IMG/VR virus record: IMGVR_UViG_3300046001_008198
Span: 61,220 to 125,219 of that record
Length of the DNA: 64,000 bases
Direction: 5' to 3' (one strand)
DNA from: a virus
Shown: piece after piece, positions 4,625 through 19,806 of the stretch
Layout of the letters: each line of letters begins with the position of its first letter
Numbering within the stretch: position 1 is the stretch's first letter
The notes under the pieces: model-generated
What the model was told of the DNA's origin: nothing
What the model saw: only the letters and a program-made list of their open reading frames with translations
Databases searched by the model: none
Made by a program: the position numbers and the translations under genes

Positions 4625-5058
4625 TACTTAACAATTGTGCGATGGGCTCTTACTAAATAGACTTCACCATTAGGTCTGTCGATAATAGCTCTTCCTTCTT
4701 TTAGGCTACTAAGTGTTGCAGTAGGTTCTCCTAAGAATATTTGAATAGCTGATAAGATTTTATCTGTAGCAGATTTACCATTAGTTACTTGAATTGTGTC
4801 AATGTATGTATCTTCTGGAGAGAATAGAACATCAACTTCAATAACTTTGGATTCTTCTCTTACAGGCATATCTGAGGCAATTGAAAGTACCACAGCATCA
4901 GGAGCTGGAGTGTCGAGAATTTGAGTTGGTTGATCGTAAGATTTAACTGTGAGTGTTTTACCTTTGAGTTGCTTTAATGCTTCTCTGTCGATAAAGTTCT
5001 CTGGGTCCGGACATAATACAATTTTCAATGCTCCGTTGCTGATGATAGTAATTTTCAT
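4624..5058 (-). CDS. hypothetical protein
   Basis: ORF; ATG at 5058 preferred. Confidence 0.7.
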   Translation of the reverse strand: MKITIISNGALKIVLCPDPENFIDREALKQLKGKTLTVKSYDQPTQILDTPAPDAVVLSIASDMPVREESKVIEVDVLFSPEDTYIDTIQVTNGKSATDKILSAIQIFLGEPTATLSSLKEGRAIIDRPNGEVYLVRAHRTIVK

Positions 5059-5068
5059 TGTGTAAGAT

Positions 5069-5536
5069 TTAGAGTATACCGTTGTCGGCAAATGAATAAT
5101 AATTATGTTTTGTTATAATTAAGTGGTCAATAACTTGCATATCAATCATGCTACCAAAGTTTTTTAATTTTCTAGTAAGTGATATATCATTATCGCTTGG
5201 TTTATTTTGACCACTTGGGTGATTGTGAACTAAAATTATAGCGTGACAATTGCTGTTTTTTAATGCATTGCTGAATATAATTTTGCCATCAACTACAACT
5301 CCACTGTATCCACCTTCTCCAATTTTTGAGTAACCAATAATTTGATTAGCTTTGTTGAGATATAAAGTGTAGAAGTATTCGTTTAGATTAATTTCACATA
5401 GTTCTTTTTTGTAAATCTTTCTCATAAAAGCTGCAGTTGTTTCAGGACTTGTCAGGTTTTCTATAGGAAATGTAGTACTTTCTTTTGCTAATGTAAGTCT
5501 TTGTCGAATTACATATTTTACTGGAAGTTTCATCAC
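5069..5536 (-). CDS. radC: RadC-like JAB/MPN domain protein
   Basis: EYFYTLYLN, IILVHNHPSG..PSDND, VIDHLII: complete JAMM motif. Confidence 0.9.
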   Translation of the reverse strand: MMKLPVKYVIRQRLTLAKESTTFPIENLTSPETTAAFMRKIYKKELCEINLNEYFYTLYLNKANQIIGYSKIGEGGYSGVVVDGKIIFSNALKNSNCHAIILVHNHPSGQNKPSDNDISLTRKLKNFGSMIDMQVIDHLIITKHNYYSFADNGIL

Positions 5537-5814
5537 ATTAAGAAATTAATAGCTATTTGCATATCGATGAAGATAAGGTAATTACCCATAGCTAATTCAT
5601 CTTTGTGTCCTACTATTTTAAATAATGGTTCAAGAAATCCTTGATTGTTTTTGAAACCTGTTATTCTTGCAGATCTGATAATACCATTTTGTTTTTTAGG
5701 AAGCATGTAGTCTCTGTGTAGAACAAGAACTTTACTCCCTATTGTCAGGTCTTTCATTGGGAAACTGTATCCTTTTGGAAGATCTGTTTGATTTATTTTT
5801 TGATGTTGTGGCAT
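5533..5814 (-). CDS. hypothetical protein
   Basis: 93-aa ORF with 4-nt overlap to the JAB gene. Confidence 0.65.
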   Translation of the reverse strand: MPQHQKINQTDLPKGYSFPMKDLTIGSKVLVLHRDYMLPKKQNGIIRSARITGFKNNQGFLEPLFKIVGHKDELAMGNYLIFIDMQIAINFLM

Positions 5815-6229
5815 AGTTAATAAATTGTTTGAAAAAGATTCTCATAATTTCATCTTTGCTGTAATTGCTGTCAATGAATTGTTCAAATTCTTTTTGATTA
5901 ATATTAATTTCAATTGTATATGAAGTTTCAGTAGTTTCTCTAGGAGATTTTTCTAAATATTGTGGAAACTTCATTGGTATTTTTGAGCGTAATTCTTCTG
6001 TAAATTCTATAAATTCGGGATGATTCTGAATGAAAAAGACTTCAATGATATTATGGCGAATTGCATCATGGTTTCGATTTAATTCTTTACCAATAGCACT
6101 CAGAGACATTTTTAGTATCCAAAACATATATGCGGCTATATAATGTCGTTGTAATACAATGTCTCTGTTTCGTGCTCTTGTAATTAAACCTTTCTCTTTC
6201 ATGAATCCCCGTAAGTCATCAATTGTCAT
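5732..6229 (-). CDS. DnaA C-terminal-like helix-turn-helix protein
   Basis: RARNRDIVLQRHYIAAY..SLSAIGKELNRNHDAIRH resembles DnaA domain IV (R..IA.AR..AMY..SL..IG..F.RDHTTV.H). Confidence 0.65.
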   Translation of the reverse strand: MTIDDLRGFMKEKGLITRARNRDIVLQRHYIAAYMFWILKMSLSAIGKELNRNHDAIRHNIIEVFFIQNHPEFIEFTEELRSKIPMKFPQYLEKSPRETTETSYTIEININQKEFEQFIDSNYSKDEIMRIFFKQFINYATTSKNKSNRSSKRIQFPNERPDNRE

Positions 6230-6230
6230 C

Positions 6231-6929
6231 CTAATTACATTTTAAGGTTTTAGTTGTTTCAACTGTCCACGGAATATCTGAATGTTCAAAGCAATCTTTG
6301 AGATAGTCAAATTCTTTGAATTTGAATTTGGCATCCCACTCTTTAGCTCTTTCATAACTAGATGTAGCTAAGGCTTTGAATCCGTAGAAATCTCGCATCT
6401 TTTCTACATCTATAGGCTCAATATCAATTTTTGTATCATTGAACTGTAATTGATAAAAAGAATGCAATGGATCCGGTGCGAACAAAGTTTGCTTTGGATT
6501 ACCTAATTCCATAAAGAAAGTTGCAGTATTTAAATATCTACTTGGATTGAGTTGATTGAATGCGGCATATACAGCTAACTGTAACATTGAATTGTTAACA
6601 TACCAATCTGTTACAGGTTTATCCGATGTAATATTTTTATGTTCAATGAATAGAAAAGAACCTGTCATTACTAATCCTTTGTTGTCATCTTTGAAATCAG
6701 GAATAACTTCATCGAATGCGTAGTGAATAAGTACTTCTTGATTGTTGACCGGAAGTTTATATGTTCCTCGCATTTCTAAAAATTGTGATGTAGCTTTAGC
6801 TAAGGCAAGTTCATTTCCTGCAACTTGTGCTGGTGTTACTACTGCTTTATCAGGATTGTTTCTTAGATAGCAGATTTGCATTGCAGACTTTTTGATAAGG
6901 TCGGCAAGGCCAAAATGTTGTGTTTCCAT
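6231..6929 (-). CDS. PD-(D/E)XK (RecB/Cas4-like) nuclease-fold protein
   Basis: YAFDE..FIEHK..LQLAVYA (RecB-type QxxxY); start at METQ after a terminator and the repeated motif. Confidence 0.55.
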   Translation of the reverse strand: METQHFGLADLIKKSAMQICYLRNNPDKAVVTPAQVAGNELALAKATSQFLEMRGTYKLPVNNQEVLIHYAFDEVIPDFKDDNKGLVMTGSFLFIEHKNITSDKPVTDWYVNNSMLQLAVYAAFNQLNPSRYLNTATFFMELGNPKQTLFAPDPLHSFYQLQFNDTKIDIEPIDVEKMRDFYGFKALATSSYERAKEWDAKFKFKEFDYLKDCFEHSDIPWTVETTKTLKCN

Positions 6930-6954
6930 GTGATGATAGTAAAATGAAAAAAGC

Positions 6955-7209
6955 CTACTGAGTTTCAGTAGGCCGAGGTAGTACCCAGTATACATCATTA
7001 GTTTGCTCGTCACGAACTAAAGGAATTTTGATTAATTCTATGTCTTTTGGGTTAATCTTAATGTTTTGATTGGTGCGGTAATAACCTTGTGCTTTATATC
7101 GAAGTGGGAAATCTTTTATGAATTGATCGGCTACTTCTGAGGAGAATTCTTGAGGTGATGCTGTAATATTATCAGTCTTATTGAAGACTATAAAGAGTTG
7201 TTGTTCCAT
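6955..7209 (-). CDS. hypothetical protein
   Basis: Short ORF followed by a terminator hairpin. Confidence 0.65.
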   Translation of the reverse strand: MEQQLFIVFNKTDNITASPQEFSSEVADQFIKDFPLRYKAQGYYRTNQNIKINPKDIELIKIPLVRDEQTNDVYWVLPRPTETQ

Positions 7210-7385
7210 ACAATACATCCTTCTTTTTTGTGCTTTTCATACATAAGCTCTGTTGTAGATCTTACAATGAATTTACGGTGAGGTTTCATTTTAAGTTTGT
7301 TGACATCAAAGCTTTCATAGCCTGGTAAACAACTAACTAAATGTTCAATATCGATTACTTGTTTGCGATTGGAATTTCTGATCAT
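7188..7385 (-). CDS. hypothetical protein
   Basis: 65-aa ORF overlapping its neighbours. Confidence 0.55.
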   Translation of the reverse strand: MIRNSNRKQVIDIEHLVSCLPGYESFDVNKLKMKPHRKFIVRSTTELMYEKHKKEGCIVWNNNSL

Positions 7386-7675
7386 ACTTCTTCTAAAATT
7401 TCAGCTTCTAAATAAGCAATTATTTCTTCTTCATTGTTAGGATCTATGATTGCAAATCTATGACATGAGTAAAAACTATATGGAAAATGTGCATCGGTTA
7501 ATGTGAGTTCAGCAAGTGTGAAACCCCATGTATTTTTTCCATACTGAGTTCTATGCAACTTAGTTGCTGTATAAACTCTTTTATCTTTAACCCATAGGTA
7601 GTCAGGAATTTCAACAGGTTTTTTTGCATCATCAATACATACGACCTTGCATGGTAATTTGATTTCTTTAGCCAT
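7382..7675 (-). CDS. hypothetical protein
   Basis: 97 aa, VVCIDD..Y.....F...RF pattern. Confidence 0.7.
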   Translation of the reverse strand: MAKEIKLPCKVVCIDDAKKPVEIPDYLWVKDKRVYTATKLHRTQYGKNTWGFTLAELTLTDAHFPYSFYSCHRFAIIDPNNEEEIIAYLEAEILEEV

Positions 7676-7952
7676 TGAATTCTTTTTTTATTTCAGCAAT
7701 AAGTCCGCGTCTTTCAAGGACTGCATGCATTGGATGTATTTGTTCCCAAGATCCCATTTTAACATGGGCTTTTCCTGAATTGTGTGCAATTAGTACTATT
7801 TGTTCAACTTGCAATGGTTGGAATTGGGTTGCTTCGGTTACAGCACCGGCTACATATTCGAATGAATGTACATCGTCATTATGTAGAAATAAATGACATT
7901 CTGCAAGATGAGGATCGATCTCGGTGAGTTCTTTATAAGAGGTCTTGTTCAT
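7668..7952 (-). CDS. clpS: ClpS-like ATP-dependent Clp protease adaptor
   Basis: LFLHNDDVHSFEYV, LIAHNSGKAHVKMG, RRGLIAEI: N-degron pocket residues N-D-D and H are conserved; Bacteroidota-type. Confidence 0.85.
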   Translation of the reverse strand: MNKTSYKELTEIDPHLAECHLFLHNDDVHSFEYVAGAVTEATQFQPLQVEQIVLIAHNSGKAHVKMGSWEQIHPMHAVLERRGLIAEIKKEFNG

Positions 7953-8358
7953 GAGCGAGTTTTGGGTTTTCAAAATGAATTTTATCATGGCAGTTACGAC
8001 ACGAGGCTTTAAAGAATTTTACCTCAGTTGTATTAATACCACGACCTTTCGAGTGATGCAAATCAGTTGCGGATCCAGTGCAACCTACCCAATTAATTTC
8101 ACAGTAAGGATGTTTATTGAGATATTCTAATCTAACTTTTAGATACTCAGCTTTAATCTTTGCTTGTTTTGGTGAAAGTTTTTTAATTGGGGTTGGTGGT
8201 TTTACTGTAGGCTTTTTTACATTTGATGCTTTGTCACTCATTTGAAGCGAGCAACTATAACTGCAGCAAGGCAACCTGTCTCCATCTATTGTTACATATT
8301 TGAAGACAGGTCTATTGTTACCACAACAAATGCACTGTTTATGTTTTCTAGCAATCAC
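7933..8358 (-). CDS. HNH endonuclease-like protein (Ref/NinG-like Zn-binding)
   Basis: CICC..CSYSC N-terminus; CE..GC..ATDLHH..CRNCHDKIH. Confidence 0.7.
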   Translation of the reverse strand: MIARKHKQCICCGNNRPVFKYVTIDGDRLPCCSYSCSLQMSDKASNVKKPTVKPPTPIKKLSPKQAKIKAEYLKVRLEYLNKHPYCEINWVGCTGSATDLHHSKGRGINTTEVKFFKASCRNCHDKIHFENPKLAHEQDLL

Positions 8359-8924
8359 ATTGCAGCAAAGTTAGAAGGTAATAGTTTACTTTCCAAAAGT
8401 TTTTCGATAATCATACCTCTGGATATTCCTAATTCCTTGAATGAAAGTGTGCATTTAAAATTTGAATCTGTTGTAATGTCTGAGCTTAATAACTGCTTGA
8501 ATAATACAGCAGGTAAGATTTCAGGAGTTTGCTTTTTAATTTGCACAGAAACTTTAGAAGTGTTTTCGTATGAGCGCACGATTTTGAGGTCATTACTTCT
8601 TTGACTTGAAGCTGATGATAGTAAATCATTCGCCACATTACTGAAAGCTTTCAATCGGAGATTCATTATCTCTTGCTTGAAGATGTTAATTACATCTTGA
8701 GCTTTTCTGTGAGTTTTTGCTATACGAGATTTCTTTGCAGAATTCATGGTATATAATTCTTCTGGTGTGTAAACAGAGAGTCCGAACAATAAGCGATCGT
8801 AAAGATGCTGCTGTCCGTTTGATAGAGATACTGGTCCATAAGACTGTGCTAGTTTTTGGTACTCAGTTCTGATAATACGAGTTTTAGTCAGTGACGCTAA
8901 GTCCTGAAGAGAATTTGTTTTCAT
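8355..8924 (-). CDS. hypothetical protein
   Basis: 189-aa ORF. Confidence 0.8.
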   Translation of the reverse strand: MKTNSLQDLASLTKTRIIRTEYQKLAQSYGPVSLSNGQQHLYDRLLFGLSVYTPEELYTMNSAKKSRIAKTHRKAQDVINIFKQEIMNLRLKAFSNVANDLLSSASSQRSNDLKIVRSYENTSKVSVQIKKQTPEILPAVLFKQLLSSDITTDSNFKCTLSFKELGISRGMIIEKLLESKLLPSNFAAM

Positions 8925-8945
8925 ATAAATTTGGATTAAAGAATT

Positions 8946-9200
8946 TTATTCATCATTGAATAGAGCATCGAGATTAATCTCTACTGTTGGCTCGTCTTCA
9001 TCTGTGAGAAATTCAAGGGTTTGGTGTTGTGATGGATCTTCGATGTCTTCTTCGATGTGTTCATCAAGACTTTCGAAAGGGTTGGATGAGGCTCCTCCGA
9101 TGTTCATGCCATTTAGGACTTTCAAATCATCATCGTCCATAGCTAAAAAAGCCTCTAAGGACATGTTGATTGATTTACCATTTGGACATTGATACCTCAT
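8946..9200 (-). CDS. small acidic hypothetical protein
   Basis: MRYQCPNGKSI..., D/E-rich. Confidence 0.75.
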   Translation of the reverse strand: MRYQCPNGKSINMSLEAFLAMDDDDLKVLNGMNIGGASSNPFESLDEHIEEDIEDPSQHQTLEFLTDEDEPTVEINLDALFNDE

Positions 9201-9237
9201 TGTTGCAATAATTATATATAATAACAAAAATAAGTTA

Positions 9238-9681
9238 TTAAAGTAGTTCTATAGGCTTACAGTAGTATTGTTGAATCTTTATAATTGAAGATATTACTAA
9301 ACCATCTACTATTTTAGTTGGAATTTTAACAAAAACATCCTGATTTAGAACTGAGATTTCATGTATTTCCACTACAACATAACCATTGATATCAATCAAC
9401 TTGTTGTTTTTGTGGTAGTTCATTATTTCTGTATTCCAAAGTGATTTAATTTTAATCCTAACATTTACTCCAGGAGCAAAGATGCATGGATTACCATTAA
9501 CTTTGATTGGTTTTTCAGGATTGTTTAGAAAGTTCATGAACATATCTCTCTGATCACTTCCCATTTCTGAAAGATTGAGTGCTAATTGTTTAATAATTAG
9601 TTCTTTTTTTTCTGGAAAGTTCATGAACATTTTGATAATATCAATATCTCTTTGTAAAGAGTCTTCGTTGATTCTGCTCAT
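9238..9681 (-). CDS. hypothetical protein
   Basis: 147-aa ORF. Confidence 0.7.
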   Translation of the reverse strand: MSRINEDSLQRDIDIIKMFMNFPEKKELIIKQLALNLSEMGSDQRDMFMNFLNNPEKPIKVNGNPCIFAPGVNVRIKIKSLWNTEIMNYHKNNKLIDINGYVVVEIHEISVLNQDVFVKIPTKIVDGLVISSIIKIQQYYCKPIELL

Positions 9682-9683
9682 AA

Positions 9684-9821
9684 TTAATTGATGTAACCGT
9701 ATTGAGCCATTAGTGTTGGATCAACCCCTGTGAGTTGGCAATCTAAGATGAATTCTTCATGCATTTGTGCCAATACATCATCTTGGGTCATTGGCTTTTG
9801 TTCTGTTGTTGGCTTTTCCAT
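9684..9821 (-). CDS. small hypothetical protein (45 aa, below track cut-off)
   Basis: MEKPTTEQKPMTQDDVLAQMHEEFILDCQLTGVDPTLMAQYGYIN*, fills the gap after a terminator. Confidence 0.65.
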   Translation of the reverse strand: MEKPTTEQKPMTQDDVLAQMHEEFILDCQLTGVDPTLMAQYGYIN

Positions 9822-9841
9822 TTGTGTAAATTAAGAGAATA

Positions 9842-9872
9842 AAAAAGGGAATACACGATGCATTCCCTTTTG
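9842..9872. terminator. intrinsic terminator (bidirectional)
   Basis: aaaaaagggaat-acacgatgc-attccctttt. Confidence 0.7.
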
Positions 9873-9923
9873 TCAATAAATTAAACTTCGTCAAGTCTAA
9901 GTTCTCCCTCCATGCAGGGGGTG

Positions 9924-10157
9924 TCACCTAGTTGGATGTCTCTCCTTTCTGCTGTAGTTAATCAATCCTTCTGTTAAGATTGTTATCAAGTTCCCTTCAT
10001 AAATATCTAGAGTATAGATTCGGGGTGTTTTAACAACAATTTCAAAGAATGGTATTGAGTTACAGAAAGCTATATTAATCGTGTTGTTGTTTTCCGATTG
10101 ATAACTTGCTGAATAAACTACAACAAGAAGGAGCAACATAGTTAGTGATGCTCTCAT
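9924..10157 (-). CDS. predicted membrane/secreted small protein
   Basis: Hydrophobic N-terminus MLLLLVVVYS. Confidence 0.5.
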   Translation of the reverse strand: MRASLTMLLLLVVVYSASYQSENNNTINIAFCNSIPFFEIVVKTPRIYTLDIYEGNLITILTEGLINYSRKERHPTR

Positions 10158-10186
10158 CTTATATTTTTTAGATTGGTGTAAATATA

Positions 10187-10726
10187 TTAATTATTTGCAA
10201 TAAATTTATAATAGGTTCGATTTTCACTTTTGGTGTAGACAGCGTAGTCTTCTCCAACAATGATATATTCATTCTGATTATAATAAATTGTACCGTTATT
10301 TCCTAAATCAGGAATAATGTCAATGTAAGGCATGGTATAGGATCCATTTCCATCTATTCTTTCTATAATGAGGTATTTAGTTCCATCAGTTTCTTGGTAA
10401 AAGCTGACATGGCTGTATTCTCGAAGGATATTATAGAGTGGTAGATTAGGTTTGCTGATAATTAACCATCCTGAATTGCTTTTGCTGTAAATGTGTGTTA
10501 AAACTTCATTGTTTACAACATAGACTGTTGTTTTGTATTCAATCACAAGTGTTGTTAATGATGTTTTAGTAATTTCTACGGGTACTTCTGCAGTACTGGA
10601 ATTGAAATACTTGACAACATACAGGTCTTGAATTGTAACTTGTTCGGTTGGACAAGCATCTATCGGAGTTGCTTGAACTGTTGTTGCGAATAATAGAATC
10701 GCACAAATTGCAAAAAATCTTTTCAT
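10187..10726 (-). CDS. secreted protein with signal peptide
   Basis: MKRFFAICAILLFATTVQA: classic Sec signal with AxA-like cleavage. Confidence 0.75.
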   Translation of the reverse strand: MKRFFAICAILLFATTVQATPIDACPTEQVTIQDLYVVKYFNSSTAEVPVEITKTSLTTLVIEYKTTVYVVNNEVLTHIYSKSNSGWLIISKPNLPLYNILREYSHVSFYQETDGTKYLIIERIDGNGSYTMPYIDIIPDLGNNGTIYYNQNEYIIVGEDYAVYTKSENRTYYKFIANN

Positions 10727-10972
10727 GGGTTTGAAGATTTAAAGATTAATACTAAATAAATAATTGTGATATATATAGGCTTTGAGGCCAAGCTGATTGA
10801 ACAGCGTGTCTTGGGTTTGATGATAGTAAAAGTTTTTAATGTGGTACTTTACCGCCTTTTAAGGTAAACCAAATGGTGAACATTGGAATGAGGTTGATAC
10901 AAAATCTTTTATGGTATTGAGAATAATGTACACCTATCCAGAAAGCTCGCCAATTGAATAACATTCCTAATT

Positions 10973-11293
10973 TCATTTGCTTTTCTTTTTAGATTTTAGG
11001 ATGAGAAATTCTGTACACTGAATGACTGTCATAGATGGATCTGAATAATCTAATCTACCTTCAATGATTACTTCCATTTGAGGAACTAGCGTATCATTCA
11101 TTATTTTAGCCATTTTTAATTTGGCGCATACATTGTGTGTTTGGATATTAGTAATGGTTGAAATCTTATTTTTAGTTTTGAATGTTTCAACTGTTTCTAA
11201 TTCCATAGATAATAAAGGACCTTTTTTAAGGTCTGTGTACATCATGGATTTTACTGTACCTATCAGAGATACTTTGTTTCTTAATGGCTGCAT
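10973..11293 (-). CDS. SSB-like OB-fold protein, no acidic tail
   Basis: LRNKVSLIGTV..ETVETFK..HNV..EVIIEGRLDYS matches the SSB core. Confidence 0.7.
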   Translation of the reverse strand: MQPLRNKVSLIGTVKSMMYTDLKKGPLLSMELETVETFKTKNKISTITNIQTHNVCAKLKMAKIMNDTLVPQMEVIIEGRLDYSDPSMTVIQCTEFLILKSKKKSK

Positions 11294-11294
11294 A

Positions 11295-11798: not shown

Positions 11799-11818
11799 AT
11801 GATTGTGTATTAGTTGTT

Positions 11819-12028: not shown

Positions 12029-12156
12029 TTTGCTTGGGTTTAGTGGATGATAGTAAATAATAAACCCGGACCTGTATGAGATCCGGGAATTTTCTAGTGT
12101 GCTAGAGCAGTACCTACGAAATTAAATATTTATGCTAGATATTTGGAAAAATATCG

Positions 12157-12230: not shown

Positions 12231-12307
12231 GCCATATCAGGAATAGGTAAACCTGATAATGTAATACCAATGAAGCAGGGGGTTGCCTGACTTACACACT
12301 GGTGATA

Positions 12308-12565: not shown

Positions 12566-12583
12566 TGTTGGTTGGTTTTGTGA

Positions 12584-12901
12584 CTATTTGAATCTACCGC
12601 CGTGATCTCGCTTTGCTAACTTTTTGAGAGCATTGTCTTTGTTCAAGGCTGATATATACACACAGTCTGGTTTCATTACTACTTTTTTGTTTGTAGATCC
12701 AGAAGAATCTTTGTTAACTACATAATCGGTTTTGGTAAACTCCGCTGGTTCAATTGTACCTGTTTCTAAATTTATTTCAAATAAAGAATGACCTCGGTGT
12801 GGATGAATACTACCAATATGTTTTTCCTGAAACTTCTGTTCTGTTTCTTTGGAGATATGAATCTCTTCACGGACTCCTAACTCTATTTCTTTACTGTTCA
12901 T
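12584..12901 (-). CDS. hypothetical protein
   Basis: 105-aa ORF preceded by TACCTTTG (TAnnTTTG) at 12906-12913. Confidence 0.75.
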   Translation of the reverse strand: MNSKEIELGVREEIHISKETEQKFQEKHIGSIHPHRGHSLFEINLETGTIEPAEFTKTDYVVNKDSSGSTNKKVVMKPDCVYISALNKDNALKKLAKRDHGGRFK

Positions 12902-12928
12902 GATACAAAGGTAAATAAAAATTAGTTA

Positions 12929-13213
12929 TTACAAAATTATGATGTCAGTGGCAATGACTTTACCTTTAGCAAGATAACCTTCTACAGCTAAATCAGATCC
13001 GATTCGTAGGCGATTAATAAATTTTAGGTATATGTCTCCTTTGAGTACAACTCTGTGTTGATACTTTTTTGTGATAGGTTTACCATTTCCATCCAACTGT
13101 AGAGATTTAGTTTCCAGGATAAAGCAAGTGCCTACTTTTTTAATACCTTCTTCGGTGGTTTGTTTAGGCTCAAGCGTTTTGAGAAGCTTGCCTATTAAGT
13201 TTACATGATTCAT
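12929..13213 (-). CDS. second SSB-like OB-fold protein, truncated
   Basis: MNHVNLIGKL..FILET..QHRVV..GSDLAVEGYL. Confidence 0.65.
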   Translation of the reverse strand: MNHVNLIGKLLKTLEPKQTTEEGIKKVGTCFILETKSLQLDGNGKPITKKYQHRVVLKGDIYLKFINRLRIGSDLAVEGYLAKGKVIATDIIIL

Positions 13214-13223
13214 GTGAAATGTT

Positions 13224-13427
13224 TTACTTGGTTGTGGTTAACTCTTGTGGTTGAACTTGGGTTCTTTTAACACCATGTTCTTGTTCTATTGCAAAAAGAA
13301 TCTTGTTGGCTTCATTCATTCTGTCAACGGCTTTCATTCCGATTGCCATGTGATGATTGAATGTGTTGGCTGCATCAACCCATCTTTCATTTGCAAGTTC
13401 AAATTTTAATCTGGTTGTGTCGTCCAT
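13224..13427 (-). CDS. hypothetical protein
   Basis: 67 aa; ATG overlaps the TTTACTATCAT motif. Confidence 0.7.
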   Translation of the reverse strand: MDDTTRLKFELANERWVDAANTFNHHMAIGMKAVDRMNEANKILFAIEQEHGVKRTQVQPQELTTTK

Positions 13428-13493
13428 GATAGTAAAAGTTAAAGGTTAATAAATTACCCCTCTGCATCTCAGTTGTAGGCTGTTATACCCTAA

Positions 13494-13858
13494 GTTAGCA
13501 CCAATACTATTGAACCAACCTATAAACAAGACGTTCAGCTTCTTTGCCTTTAACGTGCTTATAAATAGTTAATTCAGTTGGTGTTCCATTGTTATCAGCC
13601 ATTCCGCTAATTGAAACAATTTCACTAACTTCAATCACATTATTAGGGTCTGTACCTTCATAAACTATAAATGGGAAAGGCAAAGAACCTGCCTTAAATT
13701 CCTTAATTTCATCATCAGTAAAATAAGTACTGGTGCTAACATCGGTTTGGCAAAATTGCCGTTTTGTTTCTTCGTTTGACATTTTATCTAAATTTTAAAG
13801 TTTGTACTACTAATGAAGTTTTGTGTTCGGCAACTTCGCCAAGCCGAGAAACGTTATC
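13494..13858 (-). mobile_element. integron-cassette-like element (attC-like hairpin, ORF, inverse core site)
   Basis: Core GTTAGCACCAGTAC (13727-13740) vs inverse core GTATTGGTGCTAAC (13494-13507), 13/14 complementary; upstream 20-bp imperfect inverted repeat 13742-13761/13828-13847 bounded by TAAC and GTTA. Confidence 0.6.
13507..13782 (-). CDS. cassette-borne hypothetical protein
   Basis: 91 aa, MSNEETKRQFCQTDVSTS; first 14 codons lie in the attC-like hairpin. Confidence 0.75.
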   Translation of the reverse strand: MSNEETKRQFCQTDVSTSTYFTDDEIKEFKAGSLPFPFIVYEGTDPNNVIEVSEIVSISGMADNNGTPTELTIYKHVKGKEAERLVYRLVQ

Positions 13859-13869
13859 ATTAACTATTT

Positions 13870-14080
13870 AACATAGTTCACTTACAACTGCTCACCCTTG
13901 GGAGCTGATTAACTCATCTAGCTATATGCTACATTAGTTTCGGTTAATCAGGTGGTTTCACATCTTATGTGGCTGGTTTCCACTACATCCCGTGCACTAG
14001 GAATAAGAAGTCTTTATATCCACGTGAGAATGGTGCATTAATAATTTGACGGCTCCCGTATTTCAGAGAGCCGTTCAATA
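13870..14080 (-). ncRNA. candidate structured non-coding RNA
   Basis: Intergenic; hairpins ACGGCTC..GAAA..GAGCCGT, CTGATTAAC/GTTAATCAG, GCTC..GAGC; no ORF >=60 aa. Confidence 0.35.
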
Positions 14081-14157
14081 ATTGGGTTTGTAGTACTTGC
14101 TACAAATATGTCCATCAACGCTAGGTTGGATAAAGCCGAAGCTATTTCATGATTTTT

Positions 14158-14361
14158 TCATAGATTTGTTCTAGTAATAATTTTTTCTGTTTGTCCCCAT
14201 GAAAATTCAGAGGGATTGAGATAATCTAATTTGAATGCTTTTTTGAATACATCTGCAATCATTACTTCATCGAATTCGTCTTCGAATGTTACTTCAGATT
14301 TATTAACATCAAGGATGAATGTTATCAATGATGCTAAATCAATTAATACAAGTGTTATCAT
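14158..14361 (-). CDS. hypothetical protein
   Basis: 67 aa, 10 nt downstream of the motif. Confidence 0.7.
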   Translation of the reverse strand: MITLVLIDLASLITFILDVNKSEVTFEDEFDEVMIADVFKKAFKLDYLNPSEFSWGQTEKIITRTNL

Positions 14362-14400
14362 AATTGGGGTGGATGATAGTAAATACTATTAAATATATAA

Positions 14401-14697
14401 CTATAGTACTTGATAAATGAATAATGGATATCTCATTTCACCGTGTACTGAATCTATTTGAAAGAATATAGCCATTCCTAAGAAATTACATTCTGTAGAA
14501 TCAAATGCTTGACCGTCTGGAACTATCTTAAATTTGAATATTCTATGGTAGATCATATCAGGATTGTGAGAGAAATAGATTCGGAGGTCAAGGTTAACAC
14601 GTTCTATACTTAGAATTTTGGCATCCGATGGTAAGTTCACTTCATGAGTTTTTTCACATGGAAACTTAATTGTGATATATGTTATGATCGTATTCAT
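14401..14697 (-). CDS. hypothetical protein (common small phage family: LP..AKILS..F.IV..G....FLG)
   Basis: 98-aa ORF. Confidence 0.7.
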   Translation of the reverse strand: MNTIITYITIKFPCEKTHEVNLPSDAKILSIERVNLDLRIYFSHNPDMIYHRIFKFKIVPDGQAFDSTECNFLGMAIFFQIDSVHGEMRYPLFIYQVL

Positions 14698-14708
14698 ACA
14701 GTTACGTT

Positions 14709-15068
14709 TTATAAGAGTCCTATCTTTTCAAGGAAATCTTTGTTAGTAAATCGATGTTCAAAGAATTCAATTACATAGACATCTTCATCAGTAATAAGAT
14801 GGTCAATGGCTGTGATATGGTCGCCGTCATTGTATTGGCGAAGAAGATTAAGCATTGCATCAACAAGGTAATCGATGTGTTCATACGTAATGAATTGTCG
14901 AGCACTCTCGATAGCTACTGCCTGAGCAAAATACTTGTTAATATCCATTCTGTGGTAGTCAAAGTCTTTCTCAGAATTATCAGCGTCAAGGATTATTAGT
15001 CGTTTGATAATGTTTGGAAGCTCTGTAGCACTGAGGATGTGTGTGAGGTAGAGATTATTTGGTGTCAT
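14709..15068 (-). CDS. hypothetical protein
   Basis: Start at MTPNN, downstream of the motif. Confidence 0.65.
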   Translation of the reverse strand: MTPNNLYLTHILSATELPNIIKRLIILDADNSEKDFDYHRMDINKYFAQAVAIESARQFITYEHIDYLVDAMLNLLRQYNDGDHITAIDHLITDEDVYVIEFFEHRFTNKDFLEKIGLL

Positions 15069-15408
15069 TATTTGGTGGATTAAATGATAGTAAATACCAG
15101 TATATTTTTTCATCATGCATTCCATGTAAGTCGAGAATGCTGAATGCTGTTTGGTGGTAATTGATTATTGGTTCAGATGATATTCCGAATGGAAATCTTT
15201 CATTTTTGTAATCGTAATAAGTTCCAACCCAATTTTCATATTTGAAAATATCATGAGTGCCCTGACTATAATCAGGACCTTGAGTGATAACAAATACATT
15301 TAGATCCGGACGATATGTTGATACCCAGATATGTTTTAATGTTTCTGATTTATCTGTAGTAATCAATAACTTCACACCAGGTTTTGTTTCAAAAAGGATA
15401 TGTGCCAT
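15055..15408 (-). CDS. paralog family protein A
   Basis: HILFETKPGVKLL...YWYLLS. Confidence 0.75.
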   Translation of the reverse strand: MAHILFETKPGVKLLITTDKSETLKHIWVSTYRPDLNVFVITQGPDYSQGTHDIFKYENWVGTYYDYKNERFPFGISSEPIINYHQTAFSILDLHGMHDEKIYWYLLSFNPPNNDTK

Positions 15409-15411
15409 AAT

Positions 15412-15747
15412 TTATGAGATTAAGTACCAATAGAATATATCTGGATGTACAAAATCATATCCTTTGAGAATTGATTCTAACGATTCATGTTTATAATATG
15501 TTGATCCTGCTACAGAATTGTAAATAATAAACTGAGTATTGATTCTGTTTGGTGTACCTGTTGTACTAAGAAATGCATCAATAACATTAGGTTTTGTTAT
15601 AGTCCACAGTGTTTCTTCATTTGTATACAACACAGTTAATTTGTCATAATAGAAGAAAGTTGAGAATGCAAGCACTAGATTAGGACATTTTTCTTGAACA
15701 ACAAGCAAGCGTACTCCGGATTTAGGTTCTACGATAATTCGTTTCAT
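15412..15747 (-). CDS. paralog family protein B
   Basis: RIIVEPKSGVRLL...FYWYLIS*. Confidence 0.75.
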   Translation of the reverse strand: MKRIIVEPKSGVRLLVVQEKCPNLVLAFSTFFYYDKLTVLYTNEETLWTITKPNVIDAFLSTTGTPNRINTQFIIYNSVAGSTYYKHESLESILKGYDFVHPDIFYWYLIS

Positions 15748-15759
15748 AGGCGCTGGGTG

Positions 15760-16074
15760 TTATGATAGTAAATGCCAATAGGTCTCACCTTTGGATGTGA
15801 ACATATAATGATTTAGCATTTCAAGTAGGCATTCACTTACAGTTGCACAATAATCTGATGGTTCACGGATGTTTATGAAGTTACTGTCCCACGGCAATAA
15901 GTTAACACCTTTTACGGTAATGAGGTAATGGAATTCTGGTGGTGCAAAGTAGAGTGTGAAATCTTCAGGGCCTGTAAACATTTCAGTAGTGAATACATGA
16001 GGGAGCATTTTTGATTTAGTCTTTGTTAGCAACAATCGCACTCCTGGTTGTGGTTCAATTATGAGGTGGTTCAT
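15760..16074 (-). CDS. paralog family protein C
   Basis: HLIIEPQPGVRLL...YWHLLS*. Confidence 0.75.
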   Translation of the reverse strand: MNHLIIEPQPGVRLLLTKTKSKMLPHVFTTEMFTGPEDFTLYFAPPEFHYLITVKGVNLLPWDSNFINIREPSDYCATVSECLLEMLNHYMFTSKGETYWHLLS

Positions 16075-16083
16075 AAGGCTTGG

Positions 16084-16440
16084 TTATTTATCTTCTTTCA
16101 TTATATGAATTTCATCGATGGCGAATGTAATGGATGGATCCATCTTACTTTTGATTGTTAATTCAGCCATTTGTTGAGCATCGAAAGCATCAGTAGCTTT
16201 GACAAAGAAGTCTGCCGTGTATGTAACTTTGAATGATTTAAGTTGACGTAGTTCTTTGATGTATGCATAAACTGTTTTGAATTTTTGCTTACGCTCAATA
16301 GGGTCTAGTATTTTGTCAACTGTTGTAGTGATTGATGCGTCACCATTTGTATATAATATAATACAGGCTCTTTGTAAAAAGGGAAATTTCTTTTTTATCT
16401 TGGTGACTAAGTTCTTGTGTTCAATTGGTGAGAGTTCCAT
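16084..16440 (-). CDS. hypothetical protein
   Basis: 118 aa; motif directly upstream of ATG. Confidence 0.75.
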   Translation of the reverse strand: MELSPIEHKNLVTKIKKKFPFLQRACIILYTNGDASITTTVDKILDPIERKQKFKTVYAYIKELRQLKSFKVTYTADFFVKATDAFDAQQMAELTIKSKMDPSITFAIDEIHIMKEDK

Positions 16441-16501
16441 GATGATAGTATTAATAGGTGAAAATTCAAAAGCGGCAGGTACTAATCTTTCTGAATTACT
16501 T

Positions 16502-16636
16502 CTATACTATAAGAGATAAAAGAAAAGATCTGTCATGCATGTAGTCTTCAAAGATAGAGTCTTGAGGTATGAGGTCATGTTCTATGCAATGTTCGAATAG
16601 CTCTGTAGTGGTCCAATCGTAGTAGGGAGTGTCCAT
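16502..16636 (-). CDS. small acidic hypothetical protein
   Basis: MDTPYYDWTTTELFEHCIEHDL... Confidence 0.55.
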   Translation of the reverse strand: MDTPYYDWTTTELFEHCIEHDLIPQDSIFEDYMHDRSFLLSLIV

Positions 16637-16934
16637 ATAGTAATATTTAAATTGAATAAATGGTCGGTTTGAGTAGGTATGAAGAGGTGAGGAATATAGG
16701 GATAGGTTGTCCCTCAGTATCACACAAAGAGAAGCCAAAACCTCGCATTATTGTAATGCTATGCTTAATAAAGAGGATTAAAGTATCAAATATCCCCGGG
16801 TGGAGACTAACTTTGAAAAGATTAATCCCTTATAAACATTGAGAAGTATGTAAAAGTATACTATTGGATTCCTAAAACAGTACAAAAGGAGATATTGCTA
16901 CCTCCTAATGCATTGTTCCTCTCTTTACACAAGG

Positions 16935-17123
16935 TTATTGTTCATCTAATTCGATATAACCTAGTATGAATAGGTCATTTGTATTAGCTGAAATACTGAT
17001 TGATTCTGTTTCTACTTCTTCAATCATAAACTTAATAGCGAATTTCTTTGCTATTGCTTTGAATTGGTAGTACTCCTTTAAACTAAGGTGTATGATTGTG
17101 GTAATGATTTCTGCAGTTTTCAT
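16935..17123 (-). CDS. hypothetical protein
   Basis: 62-aa ORF with A-rich leader. Confidence 0.65.
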   Translation of the reverse strand: MKTAEIITTIIHLSLKEYYQFKAIAKKFAIKFMIEEVETESISISANTNDLFILGYIELDEQ

Positions 17124-17464
17124 AAGCTTATTTATTGTGGTTTATAGCCTTATTTAATTAATTATGAGATAGTTACGCATTGTAACTTAAAGTAATAGTT
17201 AAACCCTTTCACGGTACAGGCATGGTCTTGCTGGATGAGTGATGTATTAGTAGTTGGGCTTGTAATACGTAAGGGTTGCTTGTAATAGGATAGTAGCTTG
17301 GGTCCTGGAGTATGAGATCATCTCTGTTGTTTCGGCTTTCCTGATTACAGGCGGGGTGATGATAGTAAGGTAGCACATTCTTGATTGGGCCTTCTTCGAA
17401 GAAGCTAGTAGCTAGGGTCCCGAAGGATGTGAAGGTCAGGAAGTGCATACCATGGGACTGTAAT

Positions 17465-17615
17465 TACTACGAGTGCTGTTCCGTGTTAGCACGGGTGAGC
17501 ATTGGGTGTAGAGACTGTTGCCAAGATCGCATGTATGTCAACCCTCGGAGAGCATAGGTTGCCTAGGCGGCAGGACGAAGTCCTTCTAAGAGCCGACACC
17601 AAGTTGGGAGTGAGT
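17465..17615 (-). ncRNA. candidate structured non-coding RNA
   Basis: GC-rich intergenic segment; TTGGTGT/ACACCCAA, CAACC/GGTTG, TGCT-CCGTG(ctaa)CACGG-AGCA, AGGAC/GTCCT. Confidence 0.4.
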
Positions 17616-17635
17616 AGCGATGATAGTAAAACAAA

Positions 17636-17651
17636 GCCCCCGTTAAGGGGC
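17636..17651 (-). terminator. intrinsic terminator followed by the motif
   Basis: gcccc-ttaac-gggggc tttgtttt actatcatc. Confidence 0.8.
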
Positions 17652-17677
17652 GATGTTCAGTACCAAGGATATCTGTG

Positions 17678-18445
17678 TTACTCAATAACCAAACCTCCGA
17701 AGGCTTTAGTCTTTGTAGTAGCATGTACTTCCATTTTTGCAATAGCCTCTGATTCTCGTTGTTTAATCTGCTCTTCAGGAGAAAGTTGAGCAAATGATTC
17801 ACGAATTTCTTGGTTTGCAAGAGTCAATGATAGTAAAGAAGGCGAAGCCGAAGTCAAGATGCTCGGATTACCTTTCAATAGATTATCATCGTATTTGATT
17901 GGAACAGTACTTCCGACAAAGGATTTACCCTTAGCCTCAAACGCTTTGATTAATTCATCAAGGTTTGTGAACACCTGTTCAACACGAAACACTTTATCTC
18001 CAAAGCGAATTGCGATTCTACGGCGACCGTAGTTCCAATTCTCAAGATGTCCTTTCGGATTCTCAGGAGTAATGTGTTTATCAAATGTGTAAGATTTCTT
18101 TTTCTCAGGATTTTGTCTGTGATAAAGTAATCTTTCAGTATCAACCTTCGCACTAGCAACAACACAATGCACCATAGGTACAGAGATATTTGATTCAGTA
18201 ATGAAGTGTTGAATATCCACACCTTCAACAGTAATATCGTCACGGACAATATCAGAAGTGTTAGGTGTTTCAACATCAGCGCCCCAACCTAAAGAAGTAG
18301 CCAAAGCATTAAGCTTTGCTTGAACTAAAGGGTTGTTAGATGCTGACGCACAAAGAGTTGTCAATGCAGTTTTAGATTTAACACCTAAAGCTAATTTAAT
18401 GTCCGATGACAACGGACAAGCCTGTAAAAATTCTGAAGCATTCAT
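17678..18445 (-). CDS. hypothetical protein
   Basis: 255 aa from MNASEF; followed by a terminator. Confidence 0.8.
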   Translation of the reverse strand: MNASEFLQACPLSSDIKLALGVKSKTALTTLCASASNNPLVQAKLNALATSLGWGADVETPNTSDIVRDDITVEGVDIQHFITESNISVPMVHCVVASAKVDTERLLYHRQNPEKKKSYTFDKHITPENPKGHLENWNYGRRRIAIRFGDKVFRVEQVFTNLDELIKAFEAKGKSFVGSTVPIKYDDNLLKGNPSILTSASPSLLSLTLANQEIRESFAQLSPEEQIKQRESEAIAKMEVHATTKTKAFGGLVIE

Positions 18446-18744
18446 ATGAATGAGTATTTGGTAAAAAGAAGATGTCTTTAAGTAGGCACATCGATTCCTT
18501 GATACAATTCGTGTATGTATCAAACAGAGATATATAAATTAGCGAGCGAAGCCAAAATATCTCGAAGAGATTCAATCTAAGTCAAAGGTTGAGAGTAGTG
18601 AAAAACACTTGATTACCGAGCACCAATTAAGGGACAAGACAATCAAGTGTAAACCTAAGCTGAAACTATGAAAACTGAATACAATCCAATCTATGTCAGA
18701 GGTGAGGATGAGGGTTGATGATAGTAAACAAAACTCCCCGTAGG

Positions 18745-19034
18745 GAGTTGTTGGGTTTCTGCCGTGGCCCACACGCCTATCGAGGTTTGTTTCTTGGGAG
18801 CTGACTTGACCTCGTAGGTACAGTAACATTCAGCTCTTGCATTCCGACAACATTGTCAGAGAAGATTTGGTTGGAGTTCCCCTCTCAACCATGTAGTCGC
18901 AGTGTTCTCAGTGGTTATGATAGATGAGCTCTGCGCGCACCCTCTATCCTGTCCTCGTTGTGCACCATACCATATCGGTCCATCGAGTCAAGGATACTCA
19001 ATCGGTGGTGAATATGTCGAACCAACAACAACTC
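18745..19034 (-). ncRNA. candidate ~290-nt structured RNA with H-type pseudoknot
   Basis: Closing helix GAGTTGTTG/CAACAACTC; pseudoknot stems GAGCTGA/TCAGCTC and CCTACGAGGT/ACCTCG(A)TAGG; hairpins at 18843-18860 and 18869-18890; UACG terminator at 18732-18749. Confidence 0.6.
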
Positions 19035-19108
19035 ACAATATAATCCAATCTAAGTCAAAGGTTGAGCGAAGCGAGAGTGGGTGTGATGAGCGATGATAGT
19101 AAAAGAAA

Positions 19109-19754: not shown

Positions 19755-19806
19755 ATCAGTTCAGTTTAAGTTTATAATCATGGTAATCCAATCTAAGTCA
19801 AAGGTT

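Follow-up and report, generated by a model that had tools for sequence, protein, structure and literature searches.

A strand-restricted 12-base signal at the head of putative small early transcription units in an uncultured, crAss-related lake phage

The genome of a lake phage, uncultured and related to the crAss-like phages, carries the 12-base signal TTTACTATCATC at the head of about 13 small, putatively early transcription units. The motif is confined to one strand, recurs at gene boundaries, is invariant over its core and is conserved in related phages. As a whole, the best explanation is that it forms the core of a phage-specific promoter of the early class, an account that covers the start position and the reader and has a little better than an even chance of being right. 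Promoter function taken by itself is quite probable. Transcription would start in or just after the block and the reader would be supplied by the phage. The motif is also a candidate, open to testing, for the sequence at which the RNA polymerase injected by crAss-like phages starts.

Occurrence and strand of the motif

The window, i.e., the whole stretch of 64,000 nucleotides that was analysed, holds 16 exact matches to the core TACTATCAT, all 16 on the minus strand, and 15 of them fall in the leftward arm of small genes, within its first 14 kb. Dinucleotide-shuffled versions of the window held 1.13 matches on average and 6 at most, and none of 100 shuffles reached 16, which agrees with the excess over chance estimated in an earlier, sequence-only reading of this DNA. 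The 15 minus-strand copies listed in that reading were all found by the scan (from 5042 to 19093). Its strand restriction held for the whole 125,219-bp genome (18 minus vs 0 plus), the plus strand being without any match in the window as well. The absence of copies from the coding strand of the structural arm was likewise upheld, as the sole extra copy in the window (57767-57775) is antisense inside a structural gene. The 10-mer TACTATCATC gave 14 matches against 0 for its reversed control.

The conserved unit is a single block, (T)TTACTATCATC, with a C-rich tract downstream. When positions -50 to +45 were compared, nothing was conserved beyond about 12 nt of the motif, and the information content was about 0 from -50 to -3. 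Position 10 is C in 30 of the 33 sites chosen by the 9-mer alone. In the whole genome, there are no intergenic variants within one mismatch of the 11-mer that lack the exact 9-mer core; this all-or-none occurrence counts for the promoter reading. The (A)CCC tract described earlier after most copies proved to be partly right: the tract is C-rich overall (35% C vs 17% in the background), but a CCC run within 15 nt downstream is found in only 8 of 15 copies.

Position relative to genes and terminators

The copies in the window are as follows. G006 is a related phage.

19092..19103, minus strand: motif TTTACTATCATC, 5 nt past a terminator, followed by at least 260 nt without a convincing ORF and then by the terminator 18749-18732; the G006 ortholog is decayed
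18717..18728, minus strand: motif TTTACTATCATC, 3 nt past a terminator, followed by a 272-nt leader with two E2 repeats and then by a 255-aa gene (ATG 18445)
17826..17837, minus strand: motif TTTACTATCATT (T at position 12), within the 255-aa ORF, encoding SLLSL; missing from the G006 ortholog of this ORF and of doubtful function
17619..17630, minus strand: motif TTTACTATCATC, 5 nt past the terminator of the 255-aa gene, with about 250 nt without a clear ORF after it; no motif at the aligned place in G006
17358..17369, minus strand: motif CTTACTATCATC, identical at 12 of 12 bases to its G006 ortholog (pair 17359/G006-869) amid diverged flanks
16441..16452, minus strand: motif AATACTATCATC, abutting the ATG (16440) of a 118-aa ORF
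15761..15772, minus strand: motif TTTACTATCATA, overlapping the stop codon of the upstream ORF; 14 nt from core to next ATG
15083..15094, minus strand: motif TTTACTATCATT, at the 3' end of the upstream ORF; 15 nt from core to next ATG
14372..14383, minus strand: motif TTTACTATCATC, intergenic; 11 nt from core to ATG
13425..13436, minus strand: motif TTTACTATCATG, last two core bases overlapped by the ATG of a 67-aa ORF
12046..12057, minus strand: motif TTTACTATCATC, 7 nt past a terminator; 18 nt from core to ATG
10819..10830, minus strand: motif TTTACTATCATC, intergenic, with a 93-nt leader and then a 179-aa ORF
8614..8625, minus strand: motif TTTACTATCATC, on the sense strand within a 189-aa ORF; may be an internal promoter or non-functional
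6932..6943, minus strand: motif TTTACTATCATC, 8 nt past a terminator; 3 nt from core to the ATG of a 232-aa ORF
5041..5052, minus strand: motif ATTACTATCATC, last of the cluster, between a RadC-like gene and the ORF that follows it, whose TTG start lies about 15 nt further on; the replication genes are entered downstream of it
57766..57777, minus strand: isolated motif GTTACTATCATC, antisense within a structural gene; probably chance or non-functional

Among the outlying copies, the one at genome 42250 is intergenic and 15 nt ahead of an ATG, and the one at genome 60641 is intragenic. Thirteen of the 15 clustered copies lie at gene boundaries and the other two (8615 and 17827) inside ORFs; these two, along with genome 60641, count against the best explanation. 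A start codon falls between 2 nt inside and 18 nt after the core in eight copies (16442, 15762, 15084, 14373, 13426, 12047, 6933 and 5042), for which the earlier statement that several copies lie 0-20 nt ahead of the next start is true.

This arrangement bears on the possibility that the motif serves DNA metabolism, for instance as a hotspot of recombination like Chi or as a site for packaging, replication or primase action. Strict strand polarity is a property shared with Chi-like octamers, but 15 of the 18 copies are packed into 14 kb and set mostly at gene boundaries rather than spread along the replichore, and their arm-head location is kept in relatives, which leaves such a role extremely improbable.

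Five intrinsic terminators were found close to motif copies:

19109..19122, minus strand: hairpin and U-tract, closing the first three-ORF unit; 5 nt before the 12-mer
18732..18749, minus strand: hairpin and U-tract; 3 nt before the 12-mer
17636..17651, minus strand: terminator of the 255-aa gene, with a hairpin kept in G006; 5 nt before the 12-mer
12065..12087, minus strand: hairpin and U-tract; 7 nt before the 12-mer
6952..6974, minus strand: hairpin and U-tract; 8 nt before the 12-mer

Hence, a terminator lies 3-8 nt upstream of the 12-mer in 5 of 15 copies and none is adjacent in the other 10. The terminator scan recovered all five of those named beforehand, at 8, 7, 5, 3 and 5 nt upstream. 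At these five copies, the genes beyond the terminator would need a fresh start. The scheme proposed for the arm, a repeated series of motif, ORF or ncRNA, and terminator, is idealised, as just five units end in a terminator beside the next motif. The folding of the ORF-free units was no better than that of shuffles (z -0.9 to -1.5).

A signal that acts in the RNA, as UUUACUAUCAUC, has also to be considered, either as a cleavage site of a sequence-specific endoribonuclease or as a translation enhancer that replaces the Shine-Dalgarno sequence. In favour of this, the motif keeps strictly to the sense strand, a start codon follows six of the copies at 11-18 nt, and Shine-Dalgarno sequences occur in only 4 of the 93 genes of the phage. 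However, little upstream RNA would reach the five copies that stand 3-8 nt past terminators, at least 170 nt without an ORF follow four copies, and the three copies that abut or overlap an ATG leave no room for upstream ribosome contact. A function in RNA is thus very unlikely.

Conservation in related phages

Related phages of 50-82% portal identity share the 10-mer, with its strand and its place in the arm unchanged, while the flanks have diverged. Six minus and 0 plus copies are present in G002 (portal 53% identical) and 4 minus and 0 plus copies in G004 (portal 50% identical), in both cases within the first 10-20 kb of the leftward arm. Similarly, G006 (portal 82% identical) has 3 copies at the arm head. 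G019 has one at the equivalent place, against none in 28 other structural-arm fragments. Early proteins have drifted to 28% identity. No relatives above 82% portal identity were found. The motif is not enriched in G003 or in the nearest cultured relatives Lbo-JY46, phi17:2 and phi14:2, which counts against the best explanation. Judged from these genomes, the signal belongs to a clade and is not shared by crAss-like phages at large.

The comparison of relatives also bears on a proposal of the sequence-only reading, that the copies are crossover sites at which expression cassettes are shuffled. In a fuller form of this view, the cassettes would consist of promoter, gene and terminator and be exchanged like the PeSL (promoter-early stem-loop) elements of T4-type phages, promoter activity being secondary. 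The setting is PeSL-like (PMC2839356): small ORFans are densely arrayed, and at five places a terminator and the motif form a composite junction. Between orthologous anchors, this phage (G000) and G006 have different numbers of units, and the copy number is expanded, with 15 copies in this arm against 3-6 in relatives. Nevertheless, the copies share only about 12 nt amid flanks that hold no information, whereas PeSLs are conserved over about 100 bp (PMC2839356). In alignments of G000 with G006 the gene order is kept, and the motif has been gained, lost or decayed in place: it is present or absent at aligned places without a change in gene content, and one G006 copy has simply decayed. The lake contigs were uninformative on breakpoints, and none at the motif could be demonstrated from them. 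The comparison with G006, the closest relative, showed motif turnover without gene exchange, and shuffling as the primary function is very improbable.

Reader of the motif

The sigma-A promoter of Bacteroidota carries TTTG at -33 and TAnnTTTG at -7. Neither this architecture nor a -35/-10 arrangement is present at the motif copies: there is no conserved -35 position for a bipartite promoter with a 16-18 nt spacer, the TAnnTTTG box (with or without TTTG 17-21 nt upstream) does not occur within the motif, and a pattern scan for it was unenriched in the early arm. A sigma-70 consensus scan returned fewer sites than shuffles (52 vs 68.6). The structural (late) arm carries a different, host-like box, tttGCTTATATTATTA / TATATTTG.

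A 3833-aa protein is encoded outside the window, at genome 16434-27935. It contains GADYDIDK at about residue 2284 (DxDxD catalytic loop), and in tblastn its residues 2237-2349 match the 'Catalytic RNA polymerase subunit' g066 of phi14:2 (E 5e-5) and the RNA polymerase of IAS virus (E 2e-9); in all, 95 records matched the ORF region, mostly crAss-like phages. By homology, this protein carries the catalytic core of a crAss-type virion RNA polymerase, an enzyme that the sequence-only reading had invoked and that is, on these matches, encoded in this genome. The position of the gene among giant tail-end ORFs, along with the homology, suggests that the polymerase is packaged in the virion. No match to a T7-like RNAP was found among the ORFs scanned.

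Phi14:2 is the only crAss-like phage studied in this respect. Its early genes are transcribed by the virion RNAP gp66, no common upstream motif was detected for these transcripts, and its host-read middle promoters did share one (10.1101/2020.03.07.982082). A strict 12-mer would be a departure from these findings, which counts against the best explanation. A precedent in its favour is Thermus phage P23-45, in which a short conserved motif lies upstream of the pre-early transcription start sites of the virion RNAP (10.1101/2022.12.01.518664).

The phi14:2 findings are among the points that favour a reading of the motif promoter by the host RNA polymerase, with an alternative sigma factor of the host or once modified by a small phage factor from the first unit, which has no motif; the units would then be a delayed-early class. 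The -10-like hexamers TACTAT and TATCAT lie in the core and were picked as the second hexamer at three copies by the consensus scan. The first unit of the leftward arm (19754 to 19186) has no exact motif ahead of it, which counts against the best explanation, and possesses its own repeated element, E2:

19785..19803, minus strand: E2 repeat CTTTGACTTAGATTGGATT, right at the head of this arm, 30 nt ahead of the first ATG
19042..19060, minus strand: E2 repeat, 30 nt downstream of the motif copy 19092-19103
18683..18701, minus strand: E2 repeat CTCTGACATAGATTGGATT, 15 nt downstream of the motif copy 18717-18728
18569..18587, minus strand: E2 repeat CTTTGACTTAGATTGAATC, in the leader of the 255-aa gene

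A different promoter at the arm head may fire first and supply the factor for the motif promoter. Host reading is unlikely, however, as no conserved upstream partner exists to -50 and the motif is unlike the Bacteroidota TTTG/TAnnTTTG pattern, which the late arm approximates. Variation is tolerated in host-type -10 boxes, but the motif has 10 bases that never change among its 18 copies or across phages of about 50% portal identity and 30-40% GC. No sigma-like protein was seen among the 63 ORFs covered by a non-exhaustive scan.

In the earlier proposal of a promoter for a phage RNAP or factor, the promoter part is well supported by position, strand, the need for re-initiation after terminators, conservation and the dissimilarity to host promoters; as for the enzyme, reading by the injected polymerase is put forward tentatively, at somewhat less than an even chance. 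In the proposed mechanism, the first 14 kb of the leftward arm would be divided into about 13 short units, every one headed by a copy of the motif; they contain four ORF-free stretches and encode small ORFans as well as a RadC-like and two SSB-like proteins. One further copy would stand ahead of a replication-module gene. The signal would be a single block without a -35 partner, placed at the transcription start or no more than a few bases from it, and the transcripts would accordingly have very short or no leaders; their first 10-20 bases would be C/A-rich. The terminator 3-8 nt upstream and the promoter would together insulate neighbouring units. The likeliest reader would be the injected crAss-type RNA polymerase within the 3833-aa protein.

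Comparison with known systems

T7-type promoters form one contiguous, nearly invariant block of about 23 nt. The motif resembles them as a single block that probably reaches up to or through the start site, often right after a terminator, and differs in its length of about 12 nt and in that the ORFs scanned include no T7-like RNAP gene.

The early promoters P1-P3 of coliphage N4 (context in PMC13434306) are likewise signals at the head of an early region, as candidate signals of an injected polymerase are here, but they are ssDNA hairpins read by a T7-like single-subunit enzyme, whereas the motif has no obligatory hairpin and the polymerase is of another family. The analogy with N4, hairpin plus short sequence, drawn earlier did not hold: 10 of 15 copies have no hairpin, and those present carry U-tracts and are therefore terminators of the upstream unit. 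A promoter of the N4 virion-RNAP type was rejected on these grounds and because the giant ORF matches crAss-type two-barrel RNAPs and not T7-like ones.

The array resembles the PeSL cassettes of T4-type phages in that it lies in a plastic region where putative composite terminator/promoter junctions, here at five copies, flank densely packed small early ORFans, and units would carry their own start and stop signals (PMC2839356; PMC4122927). PeSLs recombine with each other, are about 100 bp long and contain a promoter like that of host sigma-70, with -35, -10 and an AT-rich region upstream (PMC2839356; PMC4122927). Unlike them, the copies here share 12 nt and have no -35/-10, a stem-loop stands at just 5 of the 15, and G000 and G006 show no exchange at the motif.

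The phage is, by its portal, only distantly related to phi14:2, as this protein has no match to phi14:2 and shares 23-30% identity with the portals of phi17:2 and Lbo-JY46. Phi14:2 differs in its early transcripts without a common motif, and the 12-mer is unenriched in its genome. The likeness lies in a gene for a two-barrel RNAP of the packaged type (DYDID core, tblastn match to g066), the divergent-arm layout and the ORF-free early stretches, two early intergenic regions of phi14:2 being among the most transcribed (10.1101/2020.03.07.982082).

The P23-45 virion RNAP is fused to the tape measure, and its pre-early promoters are AT-rich, of another sequence and verified by ONT-cappable-seq and ChIP-seq (10.1101/2022.12.01.518664), whereas the motif here is a promoter candidate. 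The two systems are alike in a strong conservation of a short motif private to the phage, which in P23-45 precedes the first transcripts, in a two-barrel RNAP, injected in P23-45 and putatively here, and in the confinement of the motif to relatives that encode the same enzyme (10.1101/2022.12.01.518664).

Strand-specific array of the core motif

The core 9-mer TACTATCAT has 16 matches in an exact search of the 64-kb window, all of them on the minus strand, against a mean of 1.13 and a maximum of 6 in dinucleotide-preserving shuffles of the window. Fifteen of these, spanning 5042-19101, are the copies listed by the sequence-only reading, whose claim of a strand-specific array is borne out at all 15 coordinates with 0 plus-strand copies; the sixteenth (57767-57775) lies antisense within a structural gene. 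The window covers bases 61220-125219 of an IMG/VR virus record of 125,219 bp, and the whole-genome scan that the same reading had proposed gives 18 copies on the minus strand and 0 on the plus strand. Since TACTATCAT is a perfect mirror repeat, reading the same backwards, a reversed control is void for the 9-mer, and the 10-mer TACTATCATC was used instead, with 14 matches against 0 for its reversed form. When up to 2 mismatches are allowed in the 12-mer, the extra matches within the window are scattered and chance-like.

An alignment anchored on the 9-mer, with 18 genomic copies and 15 from relatives, reveals the conserved block (T)TTACTATCATC. In this 33-site alignment C occupies position 10 in 30 sites, and both position 10 and the T at -1 lie outside the selection. 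The information content is about 0 from -50 to -3 and past +11, and the 20 nt located 3' of the motif are G-poor and rich in C (35% against a background of 17%). Intergenic variants within 1 mismatch of the 11-mer that lack the exact 9-mer core are absent genome-wide. The motif is all-or-none, and because nothing outside the block is held in common, the copies are not recent duplicates of a longer element.

Placement of the copies

Settings of the motif copies (window coordinates unless marked as genome)
16442, 15762, 15084, 14373, 13426, 12047, 6933, 5042; minus; eight copies from 2 nt inside to 18 nt before a start codon
10820; minus; copy with a 93-nt leader
19093, 18718, 17620, 17359; minus; four copies before at least 170 nt with no convincing ORF
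8615, 17827; minus; two copies within ORFs, on the sense strand
19093, 18718, 17620, 12047, 6933; five copies 3-8 nt past a terminator (terminator scan)
genome 42250; copy outside the cluster, between genes of the replication module and 15 nt ahead of an ATG
genome 60641; copy outside the cluster, intragenic

The five intrinsic terminators named from sequence alone were all returned by the terminator scan, and the spacing from terminator end to 12-mer is 8, 7, 5, 3, and 5 nt. At three genes the start codon follows the block directly or nearly so: at 13426 (TACTATC-ATG) and 16442 (TACTATCATC-ATG) it abuts or overlaps the block, and at 6933 the core is followed by CAC and then ATG. Because of these three ATGs, transcription would start within the block, e.g., at the A of CAT, provided that the ATGs are used and the transcripts begin at their own motif; the abutting genes could instead be served by read-through from upstream units.

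The four ORF-free units fold no better than shuffles (z -0.9 to -1.5) and have no Rfam match, so that they are not called ncRNAs here; Rfam and tRNA scans have no match anywhere in the window. In phi14:2, the one crAss-like system studied, however, two of the intergenic regions in the early part rank with the most strongly transcribed sequence of the whole phage (10.1101/2020.03.07.982082).

Genome organization, polymerase, and host

A simple ORF map divides the genome into two divergent arms. One, pointing rightward, extends from about 81.2 kb across the contig end as far as 34.3 kb; it encodes the large terminase, portal, and major head protein and, beyond them, giant ORFs of 2082, 3833, and 1942 aa. 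The other, pointing leftward, spans about 80.7 kb to 34.4 kb. It opens with about 14 kb of small ORFs (the early arm), after which come the replication genes: a Dda-like helicase, DNA polymerase, primase, DnaB-like helicase, nuclease, and ATPases.

The 3833-aa ORF, located outside the window (genome 16434-27935; L013:434-11935), contains GADYDIDK, and the 600 residues around it match RNA polymerases in 95 phage records by tblastn, mostly crAss-like. Examples include the 'Catalytic RNA polymerase subunit' g066 of phi14:2 (E 5e-5) and the RNA polymerase of IAS virus (E 2e-9). The C-terminus is a NADAR (YbiA-like) domain (Pfam E 1.4e-10; PDB 2b3w E 4.8e-6), an unusual fusion for a polymerase of the injected type; in a sequence comparison with solved structures the NADAR part alone was matched, and not the polymerase core. 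No sigma factor or second RNA polymerase was found with Pfam and PHROGs among the 63 ORFs scanned, which include only some of the small ones.

Among cultured phages, the closest portals are those of Leptolyngbya phage Lbo-JY46 (30% identity) and the Cellulophaga phages phi17:2 and phi4:1 (23%), and this low identity places the phage, as judged from sequence, as a distant member of the crAss-like assemblage. It derives from lake-water metagenomes. Of 93 genes just 4 have a Shine-Dalgarno-like tetramer, and A makes up 45% of the leaders; together with TATATTTG-like boxes in the late arm, these features hint at a Bacteroidota host.

Several other loci deserve mention. Two small early ORFs (window 12929-13213 and 10973-11293) have weak SSB-family matches below the cut-off (E ~1e-3); these matches may be relevant, as single-strand binding proteins help N4-type virion polymerases. 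At a long distance from the real capsid gene, a 125-aa ORF (window 22800-23177) resembles a portion of the major capsid protein family of crassviruses, scoring 26.9 bits against a cut-off of 27. A SegE-like GIY-YIG endonuclease (window 24958-25410) and a LAGLIDADG protein (genome 52614-53438) suggest homing elements.

Other repeats and boxes

Repeats and boxes distinct from the motif
window 19785-19803, 19042-19060, 18683-18701, 18569-18587; minus; E2, CT(T/C)TGAC(T/A)TAGATTGGATT, a second repeat at the head of the leftward arm
L096 ~2392, 1987, 1865 (contig of the relative G006); E2 variant CTCTGACCTA(T/G)AC, three copies in the same places
window 27020, 43516, 46542, 48456, 55963, plus, and genome 48398, minus; intergenic box tttGCTTATATTATTA / CTTATATTTG upstream of structural genes
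window 19830-19930; minus; CT-rich tract ctcacctctcactcactcacactc...ctcgcttcgctc at the divergence point of the arms

Two of the four E2 copies lie 15-30 nt downstream of a TACTATCATC copy, and neither of the relatives G002 and G004 has E2. Its role could be that of leader RNA element, operator, or -35 for a different promoter. The unit CTTCGCTC of the CT-rich tract recurs near the motif copy at 19093 and near 18550 and 17850. In the structural arm an intergenic box, tttGCTTATATTATTA or TATATTTG, is found at five places and differs from the early motif. The Bacteroidota -7 element is TAnnTTTG, which this late-arm box resembles; it would fit a separate, host-read class of middle/late promoters, for which it is a candidate.

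Conservation and turnover in relatives

A portal search retrieved 57 IMG/VR loci. Two near-complete relatives carry the 10-mer on the minus strand alone: G002 (107 kb, portal 53%) has 6 copies against 0 on the plus strand, and G004 (99.9 kb, portal 50%) has 4 against 0. Both genomes have a leftward arm that stops at the contig end, beside the start of the rightward arm, and carries the copies in its first 10-20 kb. The closest relative, G006 (portal 82%), carries three within the 1.9 kb of early arm kept on its contig. In G019 one copy sits upstream of the portal at a matching distance, and the 28 remaining structural-arm fragments with a portal lack the motif. Helicase-bearing contigs (37-46% identity) carry the block in sense orientation, in one case 20 nt before the helicase ATG and after a hairpin. 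The GC content of the relatives is 30-40%. Motif enrichment is absent in Lbo-JY46, phi17:2, phi14:2, and the relative G003, and a search for an equivalent private motif in G003 found none.

No closer relative emerged from megablast of both arms against the phage collection, or from early-arm protein probes (255-, 159-, and 179-aa ORFs and an alignment of a 46-aa ORF) against contigs from viruses and metagenomes. With two of the probes G006 alone was recovered, and the alignment probe A6 also returned three contigs with a 23-residue match and unrelated layout. The runs listed for the stretch include no RNA run; four lake DNA runs over 4000-20500 yielded short pieces from the same or related strains, with no usable breakpoint at the motif. 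Two stretches, 11163-11713 and 13367-13917 (the latter overlapping a 91-aa ORF), stand out in four lake metagenomes: contig depth there is 10- to 100-fold above that of the adjoining sequence, and divergent variants and loose ends are numerous. They are evidently common to other abundant lake organisms or elements.

The 255-aa protein, the largest early one (window 17678-18445 vs L096:1051-1737), shares only 28% identity with its G006 counterpart whereas the portals share 82%, and the early arm evolves far faster than the structural arm. Against this background the orthologous copies at 17359 and G006-869 are identical at 12 of 12 bases, with an upstream flank that is barely alignable. At 16700 the flanks are conserved and the motif is present in G006 only, while past the terminator at 17636 it is present in the window only. 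The G006 orthologue of 19093 has a decayed copy, TTTACTGTACAT, then a further terminator and a perfect copy. Hence the signal, being perfect or gone in these alignments, turns over quickly. As for gene gain or loss at the motif, it is the motif that is gained, lost, or decayed between the window and G006, with gene order the same in both. Such behaviour argues for a short protein-recognition site under selection and not a recombination scar.

What may read the motif

The motif quite probably functions as a promoter, the best-supported reading being a phage-specific early one, and this half of the earlier proposal of a promoter for a phage RNA polymerase is supported by position and conservation; the polymerase is an assignment that we infer. 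In the proposed mechanism a single recognition block would lie at or just upstream of the transcription start, and the promoter together with a terminator 3-8 nt upstream would insulate neighbouring units. Readings as a Chi-like, packaging, RNA-processing, or translation-enhancer element were set aside as very unlikely, given where the copies lie. Sigma-70-like sites from a consensus scan are rarer in the arm than in shuffles, the alignment of copies has no conserved -35 partner, and there is no enrichment of the Bacteroidota pattern TTTG-N17-21-TAnnTTTG. A phage-supplied reader is most likely, because the block is invariant, without host-like architecture, and kept across diverged phages.

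The crAss-type polymerase is the sole phage-supplied candidate apparatus identified here, and the chance that this injected enzyme reads the motif falls a little short of even. In phi14:2 the early transcripts are made by its crAss-type polymerase, which speaks for the assignment, but the study detected no motif shared upstream of them, which counts against it (10.1101/2020.03.07.982082). The first leftward unit, which has no exact motif copy, also counts against it and leaves room for a possible cascade, in which host polymerase acts with a phage factor.

If the injected polymerase is the reader, a fuller proposal can be made, which taken as a whole is somewhat unlikely: TTTACTATCATC would be the first promoter defined by sequence for an injected two-barrel RNA polymerase of crAss type. 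The start would be inside the block, at the A of CAT, so that mRNAs of three genes would have either no leader or one of 3-5 nt and the others C/A-rich leaders of 11-20 nt, and the 12-mer would be a portable unit with fast turnover between relatives. Such a portable 12-mer would let the phage plug new early genes into the programme of the injected polymerase. A full-text search for the motif string returned unrelated papers only, and literature searches on Lbo-JY46 and on early promoters of crAss-like phages gave no paper.

The motif makes the recognition signal of crAss-like injected polymerases testable: an invariant 12-mer in at least 13 independent contexts of one genome, kept in relatives, could serve as template when the polymerase domain is assayed for binding and in-vitro transcription. 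The motif is also a marker for early-gene annotation in this lake-water clade, and its record shows how fast such signals come and go while early proteins drift.

Comparison with known systems

The layout of terminator, promoter, and ORFan in a plastic region is like that of the PeSL cassettes of T4-type phages. PeSLs are sigma-70-like elements of about 100 bp that recombine with each other (PMC2839356; PMC4122927). Here, in contrast, only 12 nt are common to the copies and no exchange is seen, which leaves the suggestion of a crossover site for cassette shuffling unsupported. T7-type enzymes use single-block promoters, and the motif follows a similar logic. It differs from the hairpin promoters of N4 (PMC13434306). 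A similar logic is also found in the virion polymerase of P23-45, with its private pre-early motif (10.1101/2022.12.01.518664).
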